A stretch of 64,000 nucleotides of DNA from Escherichia coli (lineage in GTDB: Bacteria > Pseudomonadota > Gammaproteobacteria > Enterobacterales > Enterobacteriaceae). Position numbers and translations under genes: made by a program. The notes below the pieces were generated by a model, which was given only the letters and a program-made list of their open reading frames with translations, ran no database searches and was not told the origin of the DNA. Location: the NCBI RefSeq assembly GCF_024502345.1, contig NZ_JALDNN010000001.1. One strand, given 5' to 3'. The stretch's first letter is position 1. The number at the start of each line of letters is the position of its first letter. Positions 23,748-24,386 of the stretch are shown here, piece after piece.

Positions 23748-24185
23748 TCAAACCATCACCAGTGATAACTCTTTGCCAAGCGCCTTAGCCGCGAGCTGGA
23801 CGGCGTCGATTTTTGTCGCATGGTGCAAGTTAAATAAGCGAGTAATTTCCTGTTTAGGTTTGCCAATTCTCCTGGCTAACTCTTGCTGAGTGATTTCTGA
23901 CTGTAAAAAAGCATTTAACAGCAATACCTTAGAGGCGACGCTCAAAGGTACTTCAATAAAATGATCGTGACTATTTAATGGCGAAGGTAACGGGATAAGC
24001 TCGTTATCTTCAAAATAAAAATCAAATGCGGTCAGTAAAGCATCTTTTGCCGCTTCCATCGCTTCAGCGACAGTTTCGCCCTGGGTCAACGCTTCAGGGA
24101 TATCCACAAAAGAAACCATATAACCGCCTTCCGGCGCGGGTGTAAGAGTGACGGGGTAACGCATAATTTCGACTGTCTCTTGCAT
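23748..24185 (-). CDS. hicB: HicB antitoxin (K-12 start may be the internal Met giving 138 aa)
   Basis: 145-aa ORF directly downstream of hicA; recognised sequence. Confidence 0.85.
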   Translation of the reverse strand: MQETVEIMRYPVTLTPAPEGGYMVSFVDIPEALTQGETVAEAMEAAKDALLTAFDFYFEDNELIPLPSPLNSHDHFIEVPLSVASKVLLLNAFLQSEITQQELARRIGKPKQEITRLFNLHHATKIDAVQLAAKALGKELSLVMV

Positions 24186-24209
24186 GTCATTAACCTTTTT
24201 AATTGGCGA

Positions 24210-24386
24210 TTAACTCAAACCGAGTTGTTTCAGGATTGCTTTACGCAATGGTTCTTTAATCTCATCGCAGGGGTGACGCGGCATGACACTGCGCCTCCCA
24301 TGAAACCTGAGTTTCAAATGGTTGCTGCCATTCGCTACATCGACGCCCTGAGATTCGAGCCAACGTCTGAACTCGCTTTGTTTCAC
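24210..24386 (-). CDS. hicA: HicA mRNA-interferase toxin (58 aa, GTG start)
   Basis: Translates VKQSEFRRWLESQGVDVANGSNHLKLRFHGRRSVMPRHPCDEIKEPLRKAILKQLGLS; below the ORF-track size cutoff. Confidence 0.8.
   Translation of the reverse strand: MKQSEFRRWLESQGVDVANGSNHLKLRFHGRRSVMPRHPCDEIKEPLRKAILKQLGLS

Follow-up and report, generated by a model that had tools for sequence, protein, structure and literature searches.

An intact chromosomal hicAB toxin-antitoxin operon between ydcR and yncJ in Escherichia coli

The closest described counterpart of the locus analysed here is the HicAB system of Escherichia coli K-12 (b4532/b1438; PDB 6HPB, 6HPC and 6U0I), which lies at the same position between yncJ and ydcR and whose structures and regulation have been worked out. 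When produced alone the K-12 toxin HicA is toxic, and it is neutralised by HicB (PMC11594946, PMC10865869); His23 is the named catalytic residue of E. coli HicA (PMC8138530, PMC11594946). Transcription starts from two promoters. The upstream one, P1, carries a CRP-S site, is activated by CRP-Sxy and yields an mRNA from which both proteins are made (PMC8138530, PMC11594946, PMC6957337), and the downstream one, P2, is under repression by HicB, which binds an inverted repeat, hicO, and excess HicA lifts this repression (PMC8138530, PMC10865869, PMC11594946). HicO is bound by HicB dimers (PMC10865869), and the autoregulated promoter gives a transcript truncated at the ribosome-binding site of hicA (PMC7167474).

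Other described systems share part of this organisation. HicABs of the ribbon-helix-helix type (RHH), namely Burkholderia pseudomallei HicAB, Streptococcus pneumoniae HicBA and Yersinia pestis HicA3B3, which are compared here by description only, resemble the present system in having a HicA RNase of dsRBD fold with a catalytic histidine, a HicB partial RNase H fold placed over the active site, the toxin gene first and, as is probable here too, autorepression through a palindromic operator (PMC11594946, PMC8138530). Reviews assign a ribbon-helix-helix DNA-binding domain to the B. pseudomallei HicB, however, whereas the HicB encoded here has a helix-turn-helix (HTH) domain; its Pfam domains, together with His23 and the gene order, would place the present system among the HTH-type HicABs, 'class 3' of Gerdes 2024. 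The toxTA locus of Haemophilus influenzae is a regulatory analogue, being likewise toxin-first, with an upstream promoter activated through CRP-S and Sxy and a downstream promoter that the antitoxin represses and that gives an antitoxin-only transcript, but it has no sequence homology with hicAB, ToxT being a RelE/ParE-type toxin (PMC6957337).

In the window examined here (the whole 64-kb stretch of E. coli DNA that was analysed), two minus-strand ORFs almost certainly constitute an intact chromosomal hicAB type II toxin-antitoxin operon, orthologous to K-12 b4532/b1438; the system is an ordinary one, already known. A preliminary description of the same DNA had proposed a hicAB type II module with limits at 23748 and 24386, and in this it was correct: Pfam, PDB (6HPB, 6U0I) and RefSeq synteny all agree on the identification, and the limits are the exact outer ends of the two ORFs. 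In PHROGs, HicA falls in a toxin family and HicB in a HicB-like family (phrog_353, phrog_497). NCBIfam has no model matching either HicA or HicB, which counts neither way.

The toxin gene comes first in a co-oriented, bicistronic pair. The ORF list gives hicA at 24210–24386 (minus strand), encoding 58 aa, with the GTG start ascribed to it earlier, and hicB at 23748–24185 (minus strand; 145 aa, ATG start), of which the form annotated in RefSeq and K-12 occupies 23748–24164 (138 aa, ATG at 24164–24162, TGA stop). The short spacer between them, read from the sequence at 24186–24209 of the minus strand, is 24 nt long, or 45 nt if hicB starts at 24164. Two context genes outside the module flank the pair, as had been recognised. 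One is ydcR (22263–23669, minus strand; 468 aa, a MocR/GntR-type regulator fused to an aminotransferase domain), which lies 78 nt downstream of hicB on the same strand, and the other is yncJ (24608–24838, plus strand; 76 aa, Pfam DUF2554), which diverges from hicA, the two sharing a 221-bp intergenic region. The names ydcR and yncJ were given by synteny with annotated E. coli genomes; the order rlhA-yncJ-hicA-hicB-ydcR-ydcS is also that of O145 RM9872 and K-12 MG1655 in the RefSeq annotation. The ydcR gene has 99.0% nucleotide identity to that of K-12, with one amino-acid difference, and the yncJ protein is identical to the K-12 protein.

Across the window, K-12 and O145, 924 of 941 aligned bases are identical, and comparison of the window with complete RefSeq E. 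coli genomes gives best local identities of 99.1–99.5%, with ∼98.4% in the left flank and ∼99.4% in the right. The G+C content is 42–48% in hicAB and its intergenic regions (window 23600–24600), against 50–55% in the flanking genes, which is compatible with, and may reflect, an old horizontal acquisition of the module. No Rfam family was matched within the hicAB locus. Two further ORFs overlap the region, 24180–24422 on the plus strand and 24262–24426 on the minus strand; since neither has a Pfam family, both were dismissed as chance.

The hicA gene runs from GTG at 24386–24384 to TAA at 24212–24210 and is identical to K-12 b4532 at all 177 nucleotides (no differences in 177). Its product, MKQSEFRRWLESQGVDVANGSNHLKLRFHGRRSVMPRHPCDEIKEPLRKAILKQLGLS in the ORF list, matches Pfam HicA_toxin PF07927 with 30.9 bits (gathering cut-off 27) and aligns to PDB 6HPB_A with 58 of 58 residues identical (E = 1.9e-36). 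The catalytic His23 is kept, with its codon CAT at 24320–24318. A Shine-Dalgarno sequence, GGGAGG (24391–24396, minus strand), ends 4 nt before the GTG and is the same in K-12.

The hicB gene differs from that of K-12 at 11 of 438 nucleotides, ten of the changes being silent and one producing R2Q. All ten differences in the 138-codon annotated part are silent, the stop codon included (TGA here, TAA in K-12), and HicB is identical to K-12 HicB over the 138 annotated residues. Alignment to PDB 6U0I_A gives 144 of 145 identities (E = 1.6e-90), and residues 8–145 match 6HPB_B (E = 1.2e-86). Two domains are recognised: an N-terminal, partial RNase H-like toxin-binding domain (Pfam HicB_lk_antitox PF15919, residues 10–74, 32.8 bits; cut-off 27) and a C-terminal HTH DNA-binding domain (Pfam HTH_3 PF01381, residues 95–141, 31.4 bits; cut-off 23). 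Both genes are thus full-length minus-strand ORFs, with no premature stop, and exact alignment to K-12 reveals no frameshift in either; the protein alignments to 6HPB_A and 6U0I_A bear out the earlier view that the two genes are intact and co-oriented.

Identification of the hicB start is complicated by an in-frame upstream extension of seven codons in the ORF list, MQETVEI (24165–24185, minus strand). The 145-residue form, from the first ATG (24185), corresponds to the PDB 6U0I construct and is produced by some gene callers, whereas the 138-residue form, from the second ATG (24164), is that of RefSeq, the K-12 annotation and the PDB 6HPB construct; among public gene calls for hicB both lengths occur. 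A Shine-Dalgarno-like AAGG (24197–24194) lies 8 nt upstream of the first ATG, and reading of the sequence gives nothing comparable to it ahead of the second. The R2Q change (base 24181), the sole amino-acid difference from K-12, falls in the disputed extension, which hints weakly that these seven codons are not under protein-level constraint. The start of hicB appears ambiguous between 24185 and 24164.

Downstream of hicB no intrinsic terminator was predicted, so that read-through into ydcR is possible. The hicB-ydcR spacer (23693–23745) contains an AT-rich dyad symmetry, GTTGTCATTTTTAACAAC, together with two promoter-like sites for ydcR; as a hairpin, the AT-rich element is no better than shuffled sequence (z = −1.3). 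One public draft assembly, GCA_009868655.1 (positions 1–1308), departs from the usual arrangement upstream of ydcR: within hicB, at the equivalent of window 23861, its sequence gives way to unrelated AT-rich DNA, either because of an insertion or because the contig is chimeric.

The 221-bp region between hicA and yncJ is identical to K-12 at 217 positions, the changes being at 24566, 24558, 24468 and 24387. It contains a perfect 7+7 inverted repeat, GTAAACA-CTAA-TGTTTAC, at 24419–24436 (no strand assigned), for which a repeat search gives 9-bp arms with one mismatch, and which recurs without change in K-12, O145 and Escherichia sp. E1V33. The repeat sits 5 nt upstream of an extended −10 element, TGaTATACT (24405–24413, minus strand), picked out by a scan for −10-like hexamers and by reading of the sequence. 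Eight nucleotides past this element is AGGGAGG, which includes the hicA Shine-Dalgarno (24396–24391), and then come CGAC and the GTG. Transcription from this −10 would be expected to start at ∼24397–24398, at the 5′ edge of the Shine-Dalgarno sequence. We infer that 24405–24413 belongs to P2 and that 24419–24436 is hicO, because a start 7–8 nt past the −10 reaches the edge of the Shine-Dalgarno sequence, as published for the autoregulated promoter. K-12 has the inverted repeat, the Shine-Dalgarno sequence and the −10 elements as well.

The position of P1 is less clearly marked. Apart from the element assigned to P2, the intergenic region has just one extended −10 that reads in the hicA direction, TGcTATTTT (24457–24465, minus strand), found in the hexamer scan 71 nt upstream of the GTG; the variable base at 24468 lies 3 nt upstream of it. 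A search for the CRP-S core TGCGA-N6-TCGCA, allowing up to two mismatches, found none between hicA and yncJ, and across the whole window it found 39 against 43 expected, which is what chance would give. A relaxed CRP-S scan of the intergenic region returned only poor candidates with 3–4 core mismatches; one of the two best CRP/CRP-S-like matches, themselves poor, is the imperfect palindrome TTTGCAAATTAGCGCAAA at 24525–24542 (no strand assigned). Because these scans gave nothing or only poor matches, we keep TGcTATTTT as a low-confidence candidate for P1. CRP-S sites are reported to be asymmetric (PMC6728893, PMC10767902), and the absence of a clear core is compatible with this asymmetry, while favouring no one position. 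Cameron and Redfield 2006 make no mention of the hicAB locus.

The mechanism that we propose is taken from the literature on the identical proteins of K-12, with the positions of P2 and the operator inferred from the window. HicA would be a small RNase of dsRBD fold that cuts mRNAs whether or not they are being translated, using His23 for catalysis (PMC8138530, PMC10865869, PMC11594946). The partial RNase H-like domain of HicB is expected to bind HicA in an A2B2 heterotetramer in which His23 is covered, and the HTH domains would dimerise, bind the palindromic operator and repress P2. The mRNA from the CRP-Sxy-dependent upstream promoter P1 would be translated into both HicA and HicB. Excess HicA would free HicB from the DNA, raising the level of the P2 transcript, which begins at the hicA ribosome-binding site and therefore allows only HicB to be made; this feedback would restore the excess of antitoxin. 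HicB itself is presumably degraded by Lon (PMC8138530, PMC10865869, PMC11594946).

That the genes are undamaged is not a foregone result in E. coli, in which hicA is broken or deleted in ∼40% of complete genomes; it is this frequency that makes the frameshift check informative. In a survey of 5,426 complete RefSeq E. coli genomes, some part of the 639-bp locus is matched in 5,382 (99%) and hicA is present in 4,253 (78%). The 71-bp middle of hicA is undeleted in 3,269 (60%), a count that is an upper bound on intact hicA genes, and a 22-bp deletion within hicA is thus carried by ∼984 genomes (18%; by subtraction, 4,253 − 3,269). Only a 3′ remnant of hicB, of 239 bp or 67 bp, is left in 1,129 (21%), and the remaining 44 (0.8%) have no match to the locus. 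The 22-bp deletion corresponds to window 24248–24269, between TGCG direct repeats; it frameshifts hicA, which is annotated as a pseudogene, and leaves hicB intact. Two larger deletions that remove hicA and part of hicB have nearly the same left breakpoint (GGTAAA|), at window 24431–24433, inside the left arm of the inferred operator, which suggests nested deletions or a deletion hotspot. In Escherichia sp. E1V33 hicA has independently lost 1 bp from a stretch of C bases (equivalent to window 24270–24273) and is thereby frameshifted, with hicB still open.

Toxin-first decay has been described in general for chromosomal toxin-antitoxin systems (PMC7167474), and the E. coli hicAB survey fits this pattern. 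The frequency of such decay at the locus argues that hicAB is dispensable in E. coli. It also raises the alternative that the present locus is itself a decaying, non-functional remnant, as in many E. coli strains, a reading for which the ∼984 frameshifted genes, the 1,129 3′ pieces and the 44 empty genomes among 5,426, together with the damaged hicA of E1V33, provide precedent. Here, however, both ORFs are full length, the hicB differences are silent in the annotated part, the promoter and operator region is kept, and HicA is identical to the crystallised active toxin, with His23 present; the remnant reading is refuted at the sequence level and we give it hardly any credence. The strain has an intact hicAB and not one of the common broken forms.

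One base immediately before hicA distinguishes this lineage. At 24387, position −1 of the GTG, the hicA strand has C (minus strand), whereas alignments show T in K-12, O145, strain 120899 and E1V33. In K-12 the sequence is GATGTGA, where the T gives rise to a start-stop pair, ATG-TGA, that is out of frame and overlaps the GTG; GACGTGA here loses the pair, and this loss is among the four intergenic differences from K-12. The 68-mer of the window that spans 24387 has no exact match among complete E. coli genomes, 4,253 of which contain the segment, whereas the K-12 68-mer is exact in 3,900 of the 4,253, so that GATGTGA is present in at least 3,900. Among GTDB species representatives, the exact start-codon context of the window has no match, and a degenerate form of the pattern matches only an E. 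coli representative and Escherichia sp. E1V33.

The C at 24387 is not a private error, since the same version is common to other public assemblies. A 4.4-kb stretch that includes hicAB is identical in one ENA assembly, and in GCA_018228925.1, GCA_024502245.1 and SRR21743709 the hicAB part is unchanged, the differences from the window being only outside hicAB. The occurrence of this exact locus sequence in independent public assemblies excludes an artefact of sequencing, and the C at 24387 is a real, lineage-wide change. The start-stop pair could be imagined as a brake on translation of HicA from the P1 mRNA, whose loss here would let each transcript yield more HicA and tilt the toxin:antitoxin balance; were this true, the 24387 lineage would have an altered balance, but we regard it as very unlikely. 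The out-of-frame AUG is probably a poor start, because it is only 2 nt from the Shine-Dalgarno sequence, and one lineage-specific change in so short a stretch is expected by chance, given the 7 differences in 941 aligned bases between the window and the nearest complete E. coli genome. An effect of 24387 on HicA translation thus seems unlikely.

The preliminary description had further held the locus to be relevant to persistence and stress physiology, and here the two parts fare differently. We take hicAB to be one of the ten type II toxin-antitoxin systems that were deleted from E. coli. Deletion of the ten left persistence to ofloxacin and ampicillin unchanged, and the earlier model was invalidated (PMC6016239); the link between hicAB and persistence in E. 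coli is outdated. For stress, a starvation response of transcription is reported: PMC11594946, citing Jorgensen 2009, describes a Lon-dependent increase in hicAB transcription when cells are starved of amino acids or carbon. The same source notes that transcriptional induction is not the same as toxin activation (PMC11594946).

These data bear directly on the reading of hicAB as a stress or persistence element, in which starvation leads Lon to degrade HicB and the HicA thus set free slows translation and makes the cells more tolerant of antibiotics. The Lon-dependent rise in transcription and the higher persister frequency that follows overexpression of Burkholderia HicA (PMC11594946) are in keeping with it, but deletion of the ten systems brings no change in persistence to ampicillin or ofloxacin (PMC6016239), induced transcription need not mean active toxin (PMC11594946), and the P2 feedback yields antitoxin only. 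We consider this role improbable.

Somewhat less improbable, though still unlikely in our judgement, is that the module is intact and serves mainly in anti-phage abortive infection, HicA being released when infection shuts off host expression, with no part in stress or persistence. Type II toxin-antitoxin systems, HicA included, have been argued to act mainly in phage defence (PMC10865869), and phage genomes often carry members of the HicA and HicB families (PHROGs phrog_353, phrog_497). The neighbours of hicAB, however, are core metabolic and regulatory genes and not a defence island, the toxin is lost in ∼40% of complete E. coli genomes, and the portions of the HicAB literature available to us report no anti-phage activity for E. 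coli K-12 hicAB. PADLOC-DB v2, moreover, has no model that matches HicA, and HicB gives only marginal, HTH-level matches (E = 0.002–0.009) to the HTH proteins of candidate systems. We therefore take the hicAB module to be dispensable and self-regulating, without a demonstrated role in persistence. The value of the locus is mostly one of annotation: the ambiguity of the hicB start should be kept in mind, and the persistence rationale should not be reused uncritically.

Several other features of the window were recorded. Two direct copies, 100% identical, of a 1,057-bp IS5-family insertion sequence lie at 4054–5110 and 52638–53694, with transposase ORFs at 4086–5054 and 52670–53638, and bracket ∼47.5 kb that includes hicAB. 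The first copy truncates yddE (PhzF family; window 3525–5483), of which profile positions 1–165 of 301 are left. The window also lacks the ∼10 kb found elsewhere in E. coli between yddE and yncG (nhoA, yddH, pptA and a T6SS vgrG/PAAR island). A gene for a 269-residue hexapeptide-repeat (CatB-related) acetyltransferase, annotated in some E. coli, lies at 15651–16460 (minus strand) between yncL and patD; to our knowledge it is absent from K-12.

About 15 kb from hicAB, at 39708–40003, is a second toxin locus, in which an intact, hokB-like ORF of the Hok family (49 aa; 39854–40003) is overlapped by a sok antitoxin RNA (Rfam RF01794, 111.5 bits); this locus adjoins the small RNA RydC (RF00505, 40419–40482). 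A homologue of the orphan toxin OrtT (YdcX), beginning MSLYQHMLVFYAV, is encoded at 14786–14959 (minus strand), so that with hicAB and the hokB-like/sok pair the 64-kb window holds three toxin loci.
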